Shown piece after piece: positions 1 to 29,147 of a stretch of 31,514 bases of DNA. The notes beneath the pieces are model-generated. The model searched no databases and was not told where the DNA came from. It saw nothing but the letters and a program-made list of their open reading frames with translations. This DNA is from a virus. A program made the position numbers and the translations under genes. The stretch lies in the UHGV virus genome UHGV-0069511. One strand, given 5' to 3'. The stretch's first letter is position 1, and each line of letters begins with the position of its first letter.

Positions 1-49
1 TCAAAAAAAAATAACGCCCTGCCATTTCAAGTAAAAATTACTAATATTT

Positions 50-1138
50 TCAGATAGTAGTGGCGTTAATTTTCTTCAGTTTTTTTTTATTTTTTCTTGC
101 AGGAAGTTTAGGCTTATATGCATTAACAAAAAGTTGATATGAATCCTGTAATGATAATCCGGGAAGGGTATCGTTTTTGGCACTAAATATTGAATAATAC
201 TTTTCGTATCGACTTATATCTTTTTCAAACACCCATGTCCATTCAGAATCATATAGTCTTTCCCCTCCTTTTTCCTTATTTTTGTTCTCAACTGTACGAT
301 TAATTATAAATTTGAAAACGGTATTATTCAAAGTTCTAATAAAATTCTCAACAATAAATGCGATTTGCTCGAGATCATCATTATTGAGTATTATCGGTTT
401 TTCTAAGTGCTTCATATGTTCAGCCAATCCTAGTCGGATTGCATTTTTCGAACCCAACTTACCAAATCGATGAACACAACAATGCCTTAACTCGCAAACT
501 TTCATGAATTCGCTTGAGCATTTCATCATTTCGATTGGTCGTTGTCCTTTCATTCCAATAATGTCCTTTAATGTTTCAAAAACATTATAAGGGCTTGCCA
601 ATGAAAAGTCCTCAAGTAAAGCTTCTGGTAATAACTCCTTTTTATGGTGTTGTGCCGCTGCATAACTAACGGCCTTATCAGAAACTATAGACTGTATATA
701 TTCATCATGATTAATTAGATTTCTGATAAGAGCTCGCAAATAACTTTCGGCTGCAGACACATAACCTAATAACAACAGATGGCTTAATGTGTTTGAAATA
801 TCACCAGATCTTAACAAGTGAAGTTGCTTTGTATTAGCTATAAAAAGATCTAACGGGGATTCCTTGCTATCAACAGGTAACTCATTAAATTTTTTGTGTG
901 TCTCAAACGAAAAAACTAGAGCTGGATTACTACATAGTTCAAAAAACTCTCTTCCATCTAAGTTATCATGGGTTGCAGTGACAACTGAGGACGCCACATT
1001 ATGATGAGTGGTCTCTTCATAATCCTCTTTTGATTCTAGTTCCATTTTCCCGACTCTTTTTAAATTAAACTTTTCAGATAAGAAAGACACGATTGACAAG
1101 TACATGCCATCAAAATTAAGACAAAAACTCTTCAACAT
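50..1138 (-). CDS. Hypothetical protein with HEPN-like R-x4-H motif (Abi-like); third gene of the cassette
   Basis: ORF-track frame 50..1171 begins with TTG; first in-frame ATG is at 1138 (overlaps the upstream gene stop by 23 nt), alternatives at 1105 and 1045. Motif 'ELRHCCVHRFG' fits the HEPN R-x4-H signature. No other catalytic motif recognised. Lys-rich C-terminus. Confidence 0.5.
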   Translation of the reverse strand: MLKSFCLNFDGMYLSIVSFLSEKFNLKRVGKMELESKEDYEETTHHNVASSVVTATHDNLDGREFFELCSNPALVFSFETHKKFNELPVDSKESPLDLFIANTKQLHLLRSGDISNTLSHLLLLGYVSAAESYLRALIRNLINHDEYIQSIVSDKAVSYAAAQHHKKELLPEALLEDFSLASPYNVFETLKDIIGMKGQRPIEMMKCSSEFMKVCELRHCCVHRFGKLGSKNAIRLGLAEHMKHLEKPIILNNDDLEQIAFIVENFIRTLNNTVFKFIINRTVENKNKEKGGERLYDSEWTWVFEKDISRYEKYYSIFSAKNDTLPGLSLQDSYQLFVNAYKPKLPARKNKKKLKKINATTI

Positions 1139-2822
1139 GTAATAACACTTTGTCCATAATTTTATTGGCAATTTTGGGTCCTATTCTGTGAATTTTTCTT
1201 AACTCACTCCCAGGGTCTTGTAAAGACAATACATCTCCTATAGTTTTTACTTTTTCCAGCCCAGATAGTTTTTGCATTTGCCAAGATGTTAGATGTGGTA
1301 CTTTTGACAGTGGAATAGACATGCACTGATTATAGGCCGACTCATCAATCAATTGATTCCCACAATGATGGCAAAATTTTTGATTGTCAGTCAATCGCGG
1401 AGTCTTGCAGTTATTGCATGGAGGTAAAGTTAGTTTAAGTCTCGCAAGTTGCTCAGCATTGAATAATGATGAAATGTTTCTTCTGACAGGATGCTTAGCA
1501 TTCTTTCTTAGTATTTTTTGAATAATCTGAGAAGGAGAAAAACCTCTACTTCCTTCGTTAAACACTCTTTCCTTTATTAATAAAGCATAATGAGGTATAT
1601 ATCTTTCATAAGTACGCCCATCACCATGAGAAATATCAGGAAGATTATAAAAAAGCCCTGTTTCAATTAATAGCTTAGTGAGTCGAGAAAAATAAACATT
1701 ATCATTTTTCTCTATACCGATTATGACTTGTTTCTCTTCTTTATATTGGGAGTTACTTTCCTTGAGTAATTCGACTACTTTTAATAAAAGTGATTCACCT
1801 AATGAAACAATGTCAAACAATCGAGGTAGCTTATCTTTTAGTGAACTGTATTCGCTGAGTCTAAGCTCAACATACCTTTCAATTATTTTATTAAATTTTT
1901 GCTGAGTTGTCTGACTTAAAGTTGTTTGATAATCTCTTAACATCATCAAAAAAGAACGTGGAATACCAAATGCTGAGAATTTAAATAACTCTTTCAAGTC
2001 ATCCGGAATGCCATCATACCCAGGAAACCTTGCCTGCGCTATAGCATCCATCACTGAGGAATAATTAGGGTGCTGTACCGAAATCCAAGCATCAATTGTT
2101 TCAGCATCATGAGCAACATGAAACCTTGGGCCATATTCGGTTGTTCCAGGATAAACCGATGCCTTTAAAGCTATTTTTGAGGTTTTTAGACTACGTACAA
2201 TATCAAAAAACTCGTAAAGATATTCAGGAGTTAAGCTTATTGCTGCATCGTCTAATAAAATAATGACTCTTTTACGTTCAAGCCAATCACATAGTGAACT
2301 CAACGAGGATATGACAGAAGAAACACTGATCAATTGAACAATGTTTTCTTGTTCTAATGATGGCGAAAGACCCTGCTCAAGCCTTACGATTAAATTAATT
2401 AGGAACTCTTTATCCGCTATGAGTATCGTTGACAAATCAAGATATTCAGAATCTTCAATATCGCAAGCAATTTCATAAGCAGAGAGTAGTATCTTTGCTA
2501 ATACCCATTTATGAAAGAGATCAATTGCATTTGGTTTATTTTTTAAAAGCGGCTCTAACTTAAAATATTTATTAAAAGAAACATAGAGTGGTAATGGTGC
2601 GTTATCATCGTTTTTACATTCAACCCAAGCATAACGCATCAAATGTGTTTTACCACATCCCCTAGGACCAACTATAAGTTTGATGCCTGGGGATATAAGA
2701 GCATTATGTATAATATCGAAAAACTCTCCAGATCTGATAGTATTATTTTTTATCGTATCCTCATCAATATAATCAGCTCGTTCCTCGATAAGAAAATTAC
2801 TATCTAATTCCACATCAGTCAT
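1116..2822 (-). CDS. P-loop NTPase with C-terminal zinc ribbon and helix-hairpin-helix
   Basis: ATG start at 2822 overlaps the methyltransferase stop by 8 nt. Walker A 'GPRGCGKT'; Walker B-like 'VIILLDDA'; C-terminal 'CNNCK...CHHCG' zinc ribbon followed by HhH-like 'IHRIGPKIANKI'. Confidence 0.7.
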   Translation of the reverse strand: MTDVELDSNFLIEERADYIDEDTIKNNTIRSGEFFDIIHNALISPGIKLIVGPRGCGKTHLMRYAWVECKNDDNAPLPLYVSFNKYFKLEPLLKNKPNAIDLFHKWVLAKILLSAYEIACDIEDSEYLDLSTILIADKEFLINLIVRLEQGLSPSLEQENIVQLISVSSVISSLSSLCDWLERKRVIILLDDAAISLTPEYLYEFFDIVRSLKTSKIALKASVYPGTTEYGPRFHVAHDAETIDAWISVQHPNYSSVMDAIAQARFPGYDGIPDDLKELFKFSAFGIPRSFLMMLRDYQTTLSQTTQQKFNKIIERYVELRLSEYSSLKDKLPRLFDIVSLGESLLLKVVELLKESNSQYKEEKQVIIGIEKNDNVYFSRLTKLLIETGLFYNLPDISHGDGRTYERYIPHYALLIKERVFNEGSRGFSPSQIIQKILRKNAKHPVRRNISSLFNAEQLARLKLTLPPCNNCKTPRLTDNQKFCHHCGNQLIDESAYNQCMSIPLSKVPHLTSWQMQKLSGLEKVKTIGDVLSLQDPGSELRKIHRIGPKIANKIMDKVLLHVEEFLS

Positions 2823-4023
2823 GTTTAATCCTTACAAGATGTATTTTTTTTAATGCATCCATTGTAATATGTTGTGCGGCTACACCACTACTCGCTCGAG
2901 ATAATTCCTCTTGCCCATCTTGAGAACAAAGAAAATCAAATAGTTTTTTCTTATCTCCACCAGAGGCTCGTATCAGAAAAATACAGTCACTGATATAAGA
3001 ATAGCCGCTCTCAACAAACAATATTTTTTTATGAAAATTTCGCCCAACTCTTGCTATTAATATATCACCAGGCTTAGCAATGACATCTAATTTTGATGGC
3101 TTCAATTCTTCTACAGAGTTGCAGTGGAATTTAATGTACTTTTCATCACCACTAAATTTTGTCGTATGAAAAACATGTTCCGTAATTTCCTTTGAATTAA
3201 ACCTACCTCTAAAAATTGAAATGTTTTTAAGCATCCCTATTGTGCTAAACCCTTTACCTTCATTTTTATTATAATGATAAGAGTAGTCCATTCTCTCAAC
3301 CGCATCTTCTTTTCTAATTAAAACAGGAGGCGACAATTCCCCATCTTTAGTTATACAATGTAATTGTATTTTATGATGAGGCATAATTTTTTTATTAAAA
3401 ATTAAAATATGTGTTTTAGCCTCTGTCCTTTTGAAGATATTCCTAGGCAATTCAATGACTTTTGTAATTGAATGTTCATTCAATAAATATCGTCTTAAAC
3501 CTATAAACTTTCTTGCTGTAAATATACCATCAGGTAAAATTATTCCAGCCTCACCGCCCTTTTTAAGAAACCTGATGACTTGAGATATAAATATTATCTC
3601 TGCTGGGACATATTTTGAGACAGATATATATTTATCTGCGCCAATCTCACTAATGATTTTAAAATAATCATCCCTCCATTCAGGGAGAGTGAATGGAGGA
3701 TTACATACTGCAACATCAAAATTTCCTTGATGTCGGGCAAGCATTTCAGGAAATGAATGAACAAGGGCATCTGTTACAATATGAGTAAGATTATCACATA
3801 CTTTTTTTGACATCCGAGATTCTATATCCAAAGAATATGCTTCTGCATTCTTCCATCGGTCTAAAGCAGCATAGGTTAAGCTCCCCTCACCAGAAGCTAA
3901 ATCAATAATATTATTGACTTTTTCAGCTTTCATCTGAGAAACCAATAATGCACTTATGGATTCTTTTGTATAGTATCTTCCGAGACTATCTCGTTGTGTG
4001 AATGGCATATAGTTACTGTTCAT
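2815..4023 (-). CDS. N6-adenine DNA methyltransferase (gamma-class) with HsdS-like target-recognition region
   Basis: ATG start at 4023. Motif X 'GRYYT', motif I 'IIDLASGEGSL', motif IV 'NPPF'; C-terminal 'GDILIARVG' resembles the conserved motif of type I specificity-subunit recognition domains. Confidence 0.8.
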   Translation of the reverse strand: MNSNYMPFTQRDSLGRYYTKESISALLVSQMKAEKVNNIIDLASGEGSLTYAALDRWKNAEAYSLDIESRMSKKVCDNLTHIVTDALVHSFPEMLARHQGNFDVAVCNPPFTLPEWRDDYFKIISEIGADKYISVSKYVPAEIIFISQVIRFLKKGGEAGIILPDGIFTARKFIGLRRYLLNEHSITKVIELPRNIFKRTEAKTHILIFNKKIMPHHKIQLHCITKDGELSPPVLIRKEDAVERMDYSYHYNKNEGKGFSTIGMLKNISIFRGRFNSKEITEHVFHTTKFSGDEKYIKFHCNSVEELKPSKLDVIAKPGDILIARVGRNFHKKILFVESGYSYISDCIFLIRASGGDKKKLFDFLCSQDGQEELSRASSGVAAQHITMDALKKIHLVRIKHD

Positions 4024-4264
4024 TTTTTATACTCATCTTAAGTACGCTACCGCCCTAGGCGTTACGGCTACCCAAGAACCAACACAATCATGTAATCTAT
4101 TGATATTTATAAACTTATCTTCAAATCTTTCAGCCCTAGAACCTAAAAAAGATAGAAGTGTAGGTAACAAAGGGCGATCGGATATAGGGCTAATGTTTAA
4201 ACTTAAGTATCAAAATATACGGTTTTAGGTCATTTTCCTAATCAATCCTATCATCACGTCAAAT

Positions 4265-5473
4265 CTACTTTGTAGCGTTCACCAGCAAAGAAATACATGA
4301 ATTATGATTAGCGTTTATATAGTCCGCATACCACTGCATCATCTCCCTACGTCCTTCCAAATACAACGCATGGTTATACGTCCCACGAATCGCATTTTTA
4401 TCAACGTGAGCCAGCTGGGTTTCAATCCACGCTGTATTGAAACCTTCCTCATGCAAAATCGTACTCATCGTGTGACGGAAACCATGCCCCGTTACCCTCC
4501 CCGTATATCCAATCCGCTTAAAAACCTGATTAATACTCGCTTCACTCATCGTCTTGCGGGGATCATTACGTCCCGGGAACACCAGTGGATATTGCCCTGA
4601 CATCACTTTGAGTTGCTGTACGATTTCCAGCGCTTGGGTAGAGAGGGGGACAAGGTGAGGCCGTTTCATCTTCATACGCTCGGCAGGTATCTCCCACACC
4701 GCTTTTTCAAGATCAAACTCACTCCAGAAAGCACCTCGGAGTTCGCCAGTGCGAACTCCCGTGAGGATCAGCAGACGTGCCGCAAGAACAACTAACGGGC
4801 TTCCTGTGTAGCCTGCGAGAGCTTTAAAAAAGTCTGGTAACTCCTCAACAGTAAGGAAGGGATAATGCTTCGATTCATGCCCTGACATCGCGCTGGTAAG
4901 ATCCGCTGCAGGATTGTATTCCGCACGACCGGTTACGATGGCGTAACGAAAGACTTCGCTGCAACGCTGGCGAACCTTCTTGGCCTTCTCTGTCGCGCCA
5001 CGGCTTTCAATTCGACGCAGCACATTAAGCAGAACCAGCGGTTTGATTTCATTCACCGGTTGTTGGCCAATATAGGGAAAAATATCTTTATTAAAGGCTT
5101 CGATAATGTCCGAGGCATAACCTTCTGACCATCGGCTCACCTTCGTTCCATGCCATTCAAGTGCCACAGCCTGAAACGTATTATTTAGCTGCACATCTCG
5201 AACCAGCTTTTCTTCTTTCTTGGCAAGCGATGGATCGATACCTTCGGCAAGCTTTTTCTTGGCGTCGTCACGCAGTGCCCTCGCTTGTGCAAGGGACACT
5301 GCCGGATAGACACCAAAGGCCATACGCTTCTCTTTTCCATTGAAGCGATATTTCATCCGCCAGTATCTGGAACCAGAGGGAACAACCTCAAGATACAAAC
5401 CAGCACCATCTGCCAGCTTATAGGCTTTCTCTCTGGGTTTAGCTGCGTCTACCTGTCGCGCATTAAGTTTCAT
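4265..5473 (-). CDS. int: Tyrosine recombinase/integrase, P4 (IntS/IntA) family
   Basis: ORF-track start at 5512 is GTG; ATG at 5473 gives N-terminus 'MKLNARQVDAAKP...YKLADGAGLYLEV' typical of P4-family integrases, with SD-like GGGAGA upstream. C-terminal catalytic region contains 'HGFRHT' and 'LAH...Y'. Confidence 0.9.
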   Translation of the reverse strand: MKLNARQVDAAKPREKAYKLADGAGLYLEVVPSGSRYWRMKYRFNGKEKRMAFGVYPAVSLAQARALRDDAKKKLAEGIDPSLAKKEEKLVRDVQLNNTFQAVALEWHGTKVSRWSEGYASDIIEAFNKDIFPYIGQQPVNEIKPLVLLNVLRRIESRGATEKAKKVRQRCSEVFRYAIVTGRAEYNPAADLTSAMSGHESKHYPFLTVEELPDFFKALAGYTGSPLVVLAARLLILTGVRTGELRGAFWSEFDLEKAVWEIPAERMKMKRPHLVPLSTQALEIVQQLKVMSGQYPLVFPGRNDPRKTMSEASINQVFKRIGYTGRVTGHGFRHTMSTILHEEGFNTAWIETQLAHVDKNAIRGTYNHALYLEGRREMMQWYADYINANHNSCISLLVNATK

Positions 5474-5636
5474 TGGGGGCATCTCCCTAGACCGAACACA
5501 AAATGCCCCCACTTATGCCCCCAACTGCGACTTGATTTCGGTTGAGTCTAGTTGATAACAGGAGATAAGATACGGGCCAGAAACCGCAGTATACGAGCTT
5601 TTAGTTGATTTCGGTAGACTTGGGAAGAGTTTGAAA

Positions 5637-5682
5637 TGGTGCCGATAATAGGAGTCGAACCTACGACCTTCGCATTACGAAT
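5637..5682 (-). other. att core: 3' fragment of tRNA-Thr(CGU) (anticodon loop to CCA end); not a complete tRNA
   Basis: Reverse complement reads 'ATTCGTAATGCGAAGGTCGTAGGTTCGACTCCTATTATCGGCACCA', matching the 3' part of E. coli thrW as I recall it. Sequence further 5' lacks the complementary acceptor strand (GCCGATA) and D-arm, so the tRNA is truncated. Confidence 0.7.
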
Positions 5683-5966: not shown

Positions 5967-8045
5967 TTACTTATTAACCCAACCTGTAGCATTTGTGTTG
6001 CTTTCCTTTATATAAAGTACTGTATTTCCACCTCCATCAGAACGAGTGTAAATAGAACCAACTGGTGCTCCAACTCCGCTAGATGTTGGGTTGCCTTCTT
6101 GCCCAAATATCACAAGTGAGCTTTTATCTGTAGCTTGATTATTCTGTGTGGCTGATGTTCCAAATGAAACATTCCCTATAAATGACACGCTCTTACAGCT
6201 TGATGTAGCAAATATACCAACTGATGGTTTATTATTTGCAACGCCATCACGAATTTGATTTGAACTAACAATTACATTTTCTGCACCAGAGTCAATTCGT
6301 ATGCCATTATGGTTATTATCTGCGGTAGAAACCCCAACTATAATGTTTGATTGAATAGTAACATTTGAATATTTACCATTAATATGAATCCCATGCAGGG
6401 AAATATTTCTAAAGATGTTGCTAGAAATTACAACATCATGCGAAAAACCAGACCCTATAAATTCTTCTGCATTAGTTTCAGAAATCCATAAAGAACTTGA
6501 TGTTCCTGAATCGTATTCATTATTAGAGATGATTGATTTGTTAATAAAATCACCTTTGAAAAAACCGATTCCGCCTCTTGCTGTGTTTCCAGTGACAGTT
6601 AGTCCTGAAACCCATCTTGCGTCTACTGCATATGATTGAGACTCTGTAATAAAAATGGAATTGTTGGATATTACGATATCTTCATGAAATGCATCTGATG
6701 TATCTGTATATGGATATGTAGGTGCAGCCAGAAGAATCGGGGATCTAACGCCTTCAAAATAATTGCCAACAATGCGCCCCCTCCTTGCCCCCTGTGGTTT
6801 TGATGATGATGGGAATGGGGTTACATGAACTCCTCGCGCGGTACTGTTATAGAAAGAGCATCCGCTAACCACCCAATCATACCAGTTGAAAACCCTTACC
6901 CCGGCAAAGAGCATTCCATCGAACCTGCAGTTTATGACCCTTATATTTTTGTCCTGATTCCCATATGAATTAGCATGGTTCCCAACCCCCACCCCCCACG
7001 CCCCAAACCCAGTGGTGGTATTTTGTGGATTTGAACCAAAATAACAGTTATCAACAAGAACATTGATGTTTGGGTAATAATCGCCAAGAGATTCAATCCC
7101 CGGATCTAACTGGATCGCTTCTGAATAATTTCGGTTGGAAAGTGGTTTGAAGCCAAGAAACTTACAGTCTCTTATAATCACCCCTTGCCCGTCAGCAATA
7201 TCTACAGCATGAAAATCGACTACATCAAGAAATGTTACTCCAACAATAGAAAGATTTCTTGGTGAGGAGGCTGCAATGATGTCAAAAGGATCTGTAGGGT
7301 GGTCTTGTCCTCCTCCATCTAGTATTCCGCCTGTTATTTTAATGTTAGTGCCAGTATTAGGGCTTATTCTCAGCATGACGTCATTAGAAAAATTACGTTT
7401 AATGGTTACGCCATCAGTCATCTTTAGGTGAGTATTTGATTTTATTTGCAACTCAGAAAGCAAAGTATATATGCCTGGTAGTGAAAACTGTAGTGTACCT
7501 CCTCCAATGCTATATATTGCATCTAGCGCAAATTGCAGAGCTACTTTATTGTCAGCATTCGATGGATGAGCACCGAAGTCAAGAACATCAATGATTTGTT
7601 GGTTCTTTTGGTGTTGAGTTTGATTTGCTGCTCCGGGGAATGGTTGTTTCACCGACACTAATTCATCCCCATCACCATCATCAAAGGATGCCAACCTCTT
7701 CTGAAACTGATCAGGGTCATACTTCAGCACATTAGGAAAATAAAACTGCTGCGCACCATACGCATCATAAACCGCCATAGAATGGCCTTGCACAGTTACG
7801 AACTTGGCAATCTGTCCGTTATATACAGGGTAACCAGCAGCGTTAATGATGATTGGTTGAGAAACAGGAACGTGAGAACCATCTTCGTTCTCAACATAGA
7901 CCTGAATCTGGTTTTCAGGATTTACCGGGTCAGTGTCAATTTTACCGATATAAATTTTGCCATTGGCTACGGCTTTAAAAGAACGAGCCATAGTGAAGAG
8001 TTGCGAAGGCATACTCACTACAACATTGGCTGTAATGTCTGTCAT
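5967..8045 (-). CDS. Tailspike protein (P22 gp9-like N-terminal head-binding domain, divergent beta-helix receptor-binding domain)
   Basis: N-terminus '[43 protein letters not shown]...VLKYDPDQF' is the conserved P22/Sf6 tailspike head-binding domain; remainder is Gly/Asn/Ser-rich with beta-helix-like repeats. Confidence 0.9.
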
Positions 8046-28991: not shown

Positions 28992-29067
28992 TGGTGCTGG
29001 TTAACGGACTTGAACCGCTACCCATTCGCTTACAAGGCGACTGCTCTACCATTGGAGCTAAACCAGC
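28992..29067 (-). tRNA. tRNA-Thr (anticodon UGU)
   Basis: Manual fold of the reverse complement: 7-bp acceptor stem GCTGGTT/AACCAGC, D-arm GCTC/GAGC, anticodon loop CTTGTAA, T-loop TTCAAGT, encoded CCA end. Confidence 0.6.
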
Positions 29068-29072
29068 ATATT

Positions 29073-29147
29073 TGGCGGGACAGCGTGGACTCGAACCACG
29101 ATAAGAAGGTTAACAGCCTTCCGTAATGACCTTTATACGACTGACCC
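29073..29147 (-). tRNA. tRNA-Asn (anticodon GUU), slightly aberrant
   Basis: Manual fold: perfect anticodon stem GAAGG/CCTTC with loop CTGTTAA, T-arm CGTGG-TTCGAGT-CCACG, CCA end; one acceptor-stem mismatch and a 3-bp D-stem. Confidence 0.45.

Follow-up and report, generated by a model that had tools for sequence, protein, structure and literature searches.

A conserved methyltransferase, AAA+ ATPase and HEPN protein cassette of mobile elements as a candidate modification-based abortive-infection system

Which function three tightly packed genes next to an integrase may serve is the question raised by positions 50-4264 of the virus genome UHGV-0069511, a stretch of 31,514 nucleotides hereafter called the window. 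On its minus strand this segment carries three co-oriented open reading frames (ORFs) which code for a 402-aa methyltransferase, a 568-aa ATPase and a HEPN protein. An earlier reading, made without database searches (the sequence-only reading), had placed three co-oriented genes there and proposed them to be a candidate defence system. The gene positions are correct, and the proposal is supported by the present analysis, as no named family covers the ATPase-HEPN pair, as the block is conserved and as it is found in a mobile-element context. Judged from their sequences, the parts are familiar while their arrangement is unnamed, and the cassette appears to be a variant of those modification-based systems which combine a methylase with an ORC/Cdc6-type ATPase, with the HEPN protein as its sole effector. 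To the more specific proposal that it is a restriction-modification (R-M)-like abortive-infection system directed against phages, in which the methylase would mark self, the ATPase would sense and the HEPN RNase would kill, we assign an even chance.

The methyltransferase matches Pfam N6_Mtase (PF02384, E 1.7e-22) and, over its full length, the PADLOC MTase_II model PDLC03285 (784 bits); its sequence matches in the PDB are to HsdM of EcoR124 and EcoKI. Its catalytic domain occupies about residues 1-235, and the remainder (about residues 236-402) forms one half-HsdS-like target recognition domain (TRD). The motifs GRYYT, DLASGEGSL and NPPF, which had already been recognised by the sequence-only reading, are present and are followed by the C-terminal domain, and the resulting order X-I-IV-TRD fits the gamma class. 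Since NPP[YF] is invariant in 39 of 39 homologues and the D/E-L-G-x-G-x-G loop is conserved as well, the protein is predicted to be a gamma-class N6-adenine methyltransferase with intact catalytic motifs. The HsdS-like recognition region, likewise suggested before, gains moderate support from two weak-to-moderate profile matches. The C-terminal 167 residues match the S-subunit-like MAD5 model (E 6.9e-5), and a profile of the C-terminus matches the half-S protein Esub1 (PDB 8VSQ, E 8e-5), according to its authors half of a type I S subunit (PMC11754733). The half-S assignment is based on MAD5 and Esub1 because Pfam Methylase_S yields no match, reaching only one of 21 family members at E 0.14.

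The structural model of the ATPase is confident (predicted local distance difference test score, pLDDT, 86) and reveals, in this order, an AAA+ core, a lid, a long helical hairpin, a winged helix (about residues 368-417), a zinc ribbon and a C-terminal helix-hairpin-helix (HhH). Walker A and B motifs, an AAA+ core with a helical lid and a winged helix next to it are the traits of the ORC/Cdc6-STAND (“archaeal ATPase”) group, to which the model assigns the protein. Winged helix, zinc ribbon and HhH would provide it with three DNA-binding modules. Walker motifs, zinc ribbon and HhH had been read from the letters alone and are borne out by the model and by invariant residues (Table 1); within the HhH region G529, D530, P537, L541 and G548 are conserved, and Pfam HHH_8 matches weakly (E 0.054). 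As the sequence of the ATPase matches no solved structure, fold comparison alone is informative, and the fold turns out to be equally close to NLR, Avs and RdrA proteins and to BrxC.

The HEPN protein possesses a conserved core comprising about residues 75-345. Its predicted four-helix up-down fold and the R-x4-6-H motif located after the third helix are those of the HEPN superfamily. The R-x4-H motif which the sequence-only reading had attributed to the third protein is indeed present as RHCCVH and invariant, as R218, H219, C220, V222, H223 and R224 are all retained in 19 homologues. No Pfam or NCBIfam family was matched by the protein, and together with its 19 aligned homologues it finds no relevant Pfam family even at E 1. 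A single sub-threshold PADLOC match (RTasHEPN, E 0.0056) was obtained, and a sequence search of the PDB returned no match so that, again, only fold comparison is informative. With 415 relatives detected by a profile search of 1.84 billion representative proteins, the family is small. HEPN domains with an R-x4-H motif are RNases in abortive infection, toxin-antitoxin, CRISPR and R-M-linked systems (PMC3710099), and we infer that the present protein is an RNase effector as well. For all three proteins the domain identities predicted by profile searches, models and fold searches agree, and the catalytic residues are invariant, or nearly so, across the homologues.

By profile and fold searches, none of the three proteins was found to contain a DNase or helicase domain, which is in line with the earlier failure to see a restriction nuclease or helicase motif. 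Because no DNase is present, RNA cleavage would be the only killing activity of the cassette. A classical R-M system in disguise would require one of the two non-methylase proteins to be a DNA endonuclease of an unrecognised nuclease fold, acting in an ATP-dependent, type I/III-like manner. The three DNA-binding modules of the ATPase would suit such an enzyme, and the model matched by the methylase was derived from type II methylases in the restriction-enzyme database; set beside the outcome of the domain searches we consider this explanation very improbable.

To what extent the three genes belong together was assessed by searching two conserved HEPN peptides against one genome per species, 185,579 species in all. 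This yielded 48 loci from Gamma-, Beta-, Alpha- and Deltaproteobacteria and from Bacteroidota. In every related locus with enough sequence the three genes are conserved together, the triad being kept in 44 of 44 loci whose contig is long enough, while the remaining four of the 48 are cut at a contig end. All three genes invariably lie on one strand, in the order methyltransferase-ATPase-HEPN or, in four loci, ATPase-HEPN-methyltransferase. Clustering of all flanking ORFs revealed no fourth conserved gene: the only recurrent families are those of the triad (45-47 loci each), and the next real family, an integrase, is present in six loci. Since the pairwise identities among the three proteins correlate (r 0.67-0.87), the triad evolves as one block. 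It is transmitted and evolving as one unit, and it is not a product of chance, as its ORFs are long at a G+C content of 33% and the block is conserved in other species.

The translational coupling proposed for the three genes holds because the medians of both junctions are close to zero (0 and -1 nt, with frequent 4-nt overlaps) in 35 related loci; in the window, the 8-nt overlap between methyltransferase stop and ATPase start reported earlier is found at 2815-2822. The start of the HEPN gene is ambiguous. Its longest ORF spans 50-1171, and ATG codons are located at 1138, 1105 and 1045. From the first of these, the start which RefSeq annotates in E. coli DNA of identical sequence, the gene would overlap the end of the ATPase gene by 23 nt, while the other two lie 10 nt and 70 nt past the ATPase stop. 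Residues 1-59 of the protein are poorly conserved and modelled with low confidence.

If the cassette is defensive, the ATPase-HEPN pair would constitute its sensor-effector core. The ATPase would assemble on DNA in an ATP-dependent manner and act as a nucleotide-dependent switch that turns on the HEPN RNase, which would then cut cellular and/or phage RNA and thereby halt the infection. In the three-gene clade the methyltransferase, probably a dimer reading a symmetric or bipartite site, would add discrimination between self and non-self by marking the host DNA. Its recognition domain would be the only available sequence reader able to report unmethylated incoming DNA to the ATPase, and a methylase in the role of a reader has precedents in M2S of type I systems and in PglX, for which it has been proposed in BREX. 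That the methylation state of specific DNA sites, read by this recognition domain and relayed via the AAA+ switch, decides whether the HEPN RNase fires (“epigenetic RNase restriction”) is a possibility we put forward tentatively.

A sister clade bears directly on this scheme. In Hoeflea, Pantoea and on a Limimaricola plasmid, ATPase and HEPN genes occur without a methylase. The Hoeflea and Pantoea loci consist of these two genes only, overlapping or 9 nt apart, between housekeeping genes, and on the Limimaricola plasmid a 30%-identical ATPase is followed by a 274-aa HEPN homologue with the motif RHAVVH. The HEPN proteins of this clade form about 50 protein clusters. Its existence argues for the ATPase-HEPN pair as the core and for the methylase as a clade-specific addition. 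It also favours a different explanation, namely that ATPase and HEPN protein are self-sufficient like STAND/Avs proteins or RdrA of RADAR and are triggered by a DNA structure or a protein of the phage. The methylase would then be an accessory which does not gate the RNase and might instead protect the DNA of the element against other restriction systems, tune expression or methylate phage DNA. The proximity of the ATPase fold to NLR, Avs and RdrA, no less than to BrxC, and the lack of visible specificity swapping in the recognition domain fit this explanation too. Yet, no member of the three-gene clade lacks the methylase or its intact catalytic motif, the methylase diverges in step with its partners (r about 0.7), and whichever the gene order, the junctions between them measure about 0 nt. 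Retention, co-divergence and junctions point to an integrated role of the methylase rather than to a passenger, and we regard a stand-alone sensor as unlikely.

Several observations weigh against the R-M-like reading of the cassette. We looked for a hypervariable recognition domain by means of pairwise identities and did not find one: pairwise identities average 0.36 in this domain (minimum 0.25) compared to 0.39 in the catalytic one, and in close comparisons its divergence exceeds that of the rest of the methyltransferase only to a modest degree. The recognition domain is therefore unlike the hypervariable specificity domains of classical R-M systems, which weakens the analogy with diversifying self-marking. 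Furthermore, methylation would not be a universal trigger, as the two-gene clade works without a methylase. Many loci are flanked by housekeeping genes and not by defence genes, and among 50,697 sequenced phage genomes neither a DNA nor a protein match to the cassette was found. Owing to the limited variability of the recognition domain and to the two-gene clade, we retain, besides the stand-alone sensor, a guard and an addiction module as rival explanations, which are taken up below together with the genomic data that concern them.

Does any named system account for the cassette? Comparison with PADLOC-DB 2.0.0, NCBIfam 20.0 (which includes models for recent systems, e.g. MADS and DS-41) and Pfam yielded no family covering the ATPase-HEPN pair. 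The best PADLOC matches are confined to the P-loop and do not exceed 20 bits, and the best NCBIfam match reaches 32 bits compared to a cut-off of 75. Hence, profile searches place neither protein in a named restriction or abortive-infection family. No paper naming the triad was found in the literature, searched also for RefSeq accessions and including the DefensePredictor supplement, a coverage which did not extend to REBASE and the newest DefenseFinder. In E. coli, RefSeq refers to the gene products as “HsdM family class I SAM-dependent methyltransferase”, “ORC-CDC6 family AAA ATPase” or “zinc ribbon domain-containing protein”, and “hypothetical protein”. The sequence-only reading had been unable to assign the cassette to a named system. 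This stands insofar as no named family was found; the cassette is, however, less isolated than it had seemed, as it shares the logic of DUF499/Hma and MADS systems.

The nearest described systems are the BREX-related ones centred on DUF499 (Hma), and BREX, MADS, EcoprrI-PrrC and CoCoNuTs are related in logic. Both BREX and the DUF499/Hma systems are built around an ORC/Cdc6-type ATPase and a methylase, and some of the latter contain a fused HEPN domain (PMC12839542). The cassette does not show the features that define DUF499/Hma, BREX, MADS, PrrC/RloC, type I R-M or orthodox type II R-M systems. With DUF499/Hma systems (“type-1 BR”, Rakesh & Krishnan 2026, PMC12839542) it has in common an N6-adenine methylase, a STAND/ORC-Cdc6 ATPase with winged helices, an R-M-like logic and mobility, and in about half of these systems a HEPN RNase is fused to the N-terminus of the ATPase. 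Their ATPase, however, measures about 1,000 aa and contains RRM-like domains, while that of the cassette comprises 568 aa and ends in the zinc ribbon and HhH. Their primary effector is a Swi2/Snf2 helicase-nuclease, which the cassette lacks, leaving its separate HEPN protein as the sole candidate effector, and the cassette methylase, unlike theirs, bears its own half-S recognition domain. Neither a DUF499 match of the ATPase nor a helicase gene was found in the cassette, and the Hma-associated PADLOC HEC-02A models score at most 20 bits and only over P-loop segments. In contrast to BREX type 1, PglZ, BrxL, BrxA and BrxB are all absent, and PglX models match the cassette methylase with 28-31 bits compared to a cut-off of 500.

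Regarding MADS, the cassette methylase is distantly similar to MAD2 (58.6 bits, cut-off 720), its C-terminal domain to MAD5 (21.8 bits, cut-off 400) and the P-loop of the ATPase to MAD8 (mad8, E 0.004, P-loop only). MADS consists of eight genes (MAD1-8), among which no equivalent HEPN protein was detected, while the cassette is not accompanied by any further conserved gene. EcoprrI-PrrC and RloC likewise combine an ATPase-controlled HEPN-type RNase with an HsdM-like methylase and have RNA as their target. In these systems, however, an ABC-type ATPase is fused to the nuclease inside a complete type I hsdMSR operon; the cassette ATPase is a separate AAA+ protein, and neither hsdR nor hsdS is present. 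Type IV CoCoNuTs (Bell et al. 2024, PMC11090510) similarly pair a restriction-type NTPase with HEPN nucleases, whose action on RNA rather than DNA is, as for the cassette, a computational prediction only. They are composed of McrBC GTPases, which the cassette lacks, and coiled-coil proteins, contain no methylase and have no sequence relationship to the cassette. The nearest curated HEPN family is RiboL-PSP-HEPN (PF18735), the UniRef label of some homologues. A member of the two-gene clade matches it at E 0.0012, while the window protein and 19 homologues fail to do so at E 1, and the cassette HEPN protein has no L-PSP domain. As to the R-M types proper, neither an HsdR helicase nor a PD-(D/E)xK domain nor a conserved neighbour was found, and in contrast to the two-domain HsdS of type I systems the single recognition domain is fused to the methylase. 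In an orthodox type II system a partner of the methylase would be expected to have a DNase fold, which neither of the two possesses. A HEPN-MNT toxin-antitoxin module is equally contradicted, as no nucleotidyltransferase domain was detected in the cassette or in its conserved neighbours.

The precedent of EcoprrI-PrrC leads to a further explanation. The methylase, alone or together with the ATPase, might keep the HEPN RNase latent until it is released by anti-restriction proteins of phages, such as inhibitors of the Ocr/ArdA/Stp type, which are directed against HsdM-like methylases, so that the cassette would be a trap for phages which disarm type I or BREX systems. A HEPN survey (PMC3710099) makes a comparable case for HEPN domains linked to R-M systems; the methylase resembles HsdM, and in some E. 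coli strains the cassette lies beside BREX-1, a known target of Ocr (PMC7261183). This neighbourhood can be followed in E. coli, to whose chromosomal DNA the cassette of the window is 100% identical. Of 5,426 complete genomes of this species, 145 carry the cassette, invariably in the chromosome, and E. coli HS and NCTC9113 are among the carriers. There, a P4-type integrase at thrW and an IS1 element enclose the cassette as their sole cargo. Beyond IS1, BREX-1 follows in FDAARGOS_1058 and lactate-utilisation genes follow in NCTC9113, and since the genes at this place differ among strains, thrW is to be regarded as a hotspot of variable cargo. In the locus of FDAARGOS_1058 (L001), the cassette and the BREX-1 operon are separated by a hypothetical gene and an IS1 transposase, both of them frameshifted (9772-11864). 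Linkage to BREX or type I systems is conserved neither in E. coli nor in the other 48 loci, and the two-gene clade stays silent without a methylase. Both speak against a guard, which we judge improbable. A role as an accessory of BREX was considered separately and rejected, as BREX is missing at this place in NCTC9113, as the BREX-side junction is kept in only 36 genomes compared to 145 with the cassette and as no BREX genes flank it in other species. For E. coli HS, PacBio data in the BREX paper report the BREX motif as the sole one. The thrW methylase of the ST131 strain EC958 is a different enzyme and part of a type I R-M system (PMC4659465).

The module is horizontally mobile, and its mobile-element context is stronger than first read, owing to a lambdoid moron locus, a P4-like element and integrase islets. 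The full triad is present in five of five viral-contig loci from IMG/VR. In two of these contigs (L065, 257-5519, and similarly L066) a lambdoid prophage carries it between its Q-like antiterminator and its endolysin. The slot between Q and endolysin of lambdoid prophages is a classic moron slot which also houses the Shiga toxin genes. In a third contig the triad adjoins a repressor, a P4-type primase and an integrase, which together indicate a P4-like element. Integrases account for nine of 118 nearest flanking genes of the related loci, and defence neighbours are scattered (type IIG R-M, DpdF, PsyrT, LmuA, DrmMII, HEC-06). Taking the cassette for a phage gene was abandoned in favour of prophage or islet cargo in view of the missing match in the phage genome collection.

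Carriage by mobile elements throughout would also be expected of a selfish cassette which stabilises islet, prophage or plasmid by post-segregational killing and has no dedicated anti-phage role, loss of the methylase leading to unmarked DNA or an unopposed RNase. Both R-M systems and HEPN toxins are known as addiction modules (PMC3710099). While addiction modules concentrate on plasmids, the cassette is rare there (five of 72,556). Several chromosomal copies lie between housekeeping genes with no element to stabilise, and decayed copies exist. We therefore attribute only a slight probability to pure addiction, bearing in mind that addiction and defence are not mutually exclusive.

Within the window, the cassette belongs to an islet with a P4-type integrase at thrW. 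The integrase shows the full P4-type set of Pfam domains, which agrees with its earlier classification. Of the integrase-linked tRNA island which had been described, the islet stands, while no intact tRNA is present: ARAGORN called none beside the integrase, and only a 46-nt fragment of thrW is left because a P22/HK620-like prophage has used this site for its own insertion. Where E. coli genomes lack that prophage, the intact thrW is located about 160 bp beyond the annotated integrase gene. The window is identical to L001 up to 5682, where this fragment ends, and divergent beyond. A second copy of the thrW attachment core, sought to delimit the islet, was not found. The earlier impression of an AT-rich block is confirmed by a G+C content of 0.32-0.36 over 1-4000 compared to 0.46-0.51 in the remaining window. 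We did not assign a promoter because the sites found by a consensus scan of 1-4400 are no more numerous than in shuffled controls. Positions 5683-31514 represent a P22/HK620/Sf6-like prophage (tailspike at 5967-8045) in tandem with the integrase islet at thrW. Over roughly half of its length this prophage is 95% identical to known phages, and it contains adjacent tRNA genes for Thr-TGT and Asn-GTT (28992-29147, minus strand).

Table 1. Features of the cassette and its surroundings in the window, and location of the two-gene loci in their own sequences (aa, amino acids).
Feature	Position	Strand	Basis or remark
Methyltransferase gene	2815..4023	-	402 aa
Catalytic motif IV, NPPF	3691..3702	-	Translation; N, P, P invariant, last residue Y/F (39 sequences)
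AAA+ ATPase gene	1116..2822	-	568 aa
Walker A, GPRGCGKTH	2643..2669	-	Translation; G52, P53, R54, G55, G57, K58, T59, H60 invariant (20 homologues)
Walker B, LLDD	2247..2258	-	Translation; D191, D192 invariant
Zinc ribbon, CxxC-x11-CxxC	1362..1418	-	C469, C472, C484, C487 invariant; Pfam Zn_ribbon_3, E 0.0013
Helix-hairpin-helix region, about residues 496-567	1122..1337	-	Model helices 496-567
HEPN-fold protein gene, predicted RNase effector	50..1138	-	362 aa from RefSeq start
HEPN catalytic motif RHCCVH (R-x4-H)	470..487	-	Translation
241-bp intergenic region 5' of methyltransferase, presumed operon promoter region	4024..4264	-	Sequence
P4-type tyrosine integrase of thrW islet	4265..5512	-	Pfam Arm-DNA-bind_3, Phage_int_M, Phage_integrase
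46-nt 3' fragment of tRNA-Thr thrW, attachment-site remnant between islet and P22-like prophage	5637..5682	-	
Two-gene loci (574-aa ATPase + 274-aa HEPN)	L052 5277-7831; L054/L055 4267-6825; L050 4968-7523		

Some of the related loci deviate from the common layout or carry additional genes. In Pseudomonas bharatica CSV86 there are two copies of the cassette (L048, L049), each adjoining an integrase, which look like decaying copies, as ATPase and HEPN genes are broken into several pieces in both. A 522-aa fusion of the catalytic half of the methylase with the HEPN core, with no ATPase nearby, is found in L059 (251-1819) as well as in L060 and L061. These three originate from runs with consecutive accession numbers, and the fusion seems to derive from the cassette by an in-frame deletion; according to the HEPN survey of 2013, HEPN domains are not fused to methylases (PMC3710099). 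On the Limimaricola plasmid the ATPase-HEPN pair is followed by a gene for a 442-aa protein without detectable family. On a Planktothrix plasmid (L051, 3357-10043) a distant relative of the ATPase, 29% identical in its AAA+ part, is flanked on one side by a gene of the PAPS reductase family and on the other by a DEAD/DEAH helicase and a further ATPase, a layout which recalls phosphorothioate-type modification systems (BREX type 4 or Ssp-like). In L003 (9011-12921) a second set of three genes directly adjoins the cassette; its products are a PRTase-CE protein, an ORC-CDC6-like ATPase of full length (668 aa; PF24389, E 1.9e-95) and a protein of 308 aa without a family. Similar genes occur in about four other loci (e.g. 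L007, L022, L025), the genomes concerned being unrelated, and this set may be another candidate conflict system repeatedly co-located with the cassette.

Ultimately, what the R-M-like reading would mean may be stated as follows. R-M-like systems that act by an RNase only have been predicted elsewhere (CoCoNuTs, HEPN-fused DUF499 ATPases), and no demonstration of one was found in the literature. If epigenetic RNase restriction proves true, modification of DNA would be the signal of self while RNA and not DNA would be destroyed, and the cassette would be the smallest known modification-based immune system. The two-gene sister clade offers a natural control which would separate the share of methylation from that of the ATPase-HEPN core. 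If defensive, the cassette would represent an unnamed system in about 3% of complete E. coli genomes, among them that of the colonisation model strain E. coli HS, whose broad resistance to phages BREX explains only in part (bioRxiv 10.64898/2026.05.19.726188). It would, in addition, provide a tractable three-protein model of how methylase-ATPase pairs sense unmodified DNA, a problem which is unsolved for BREX.

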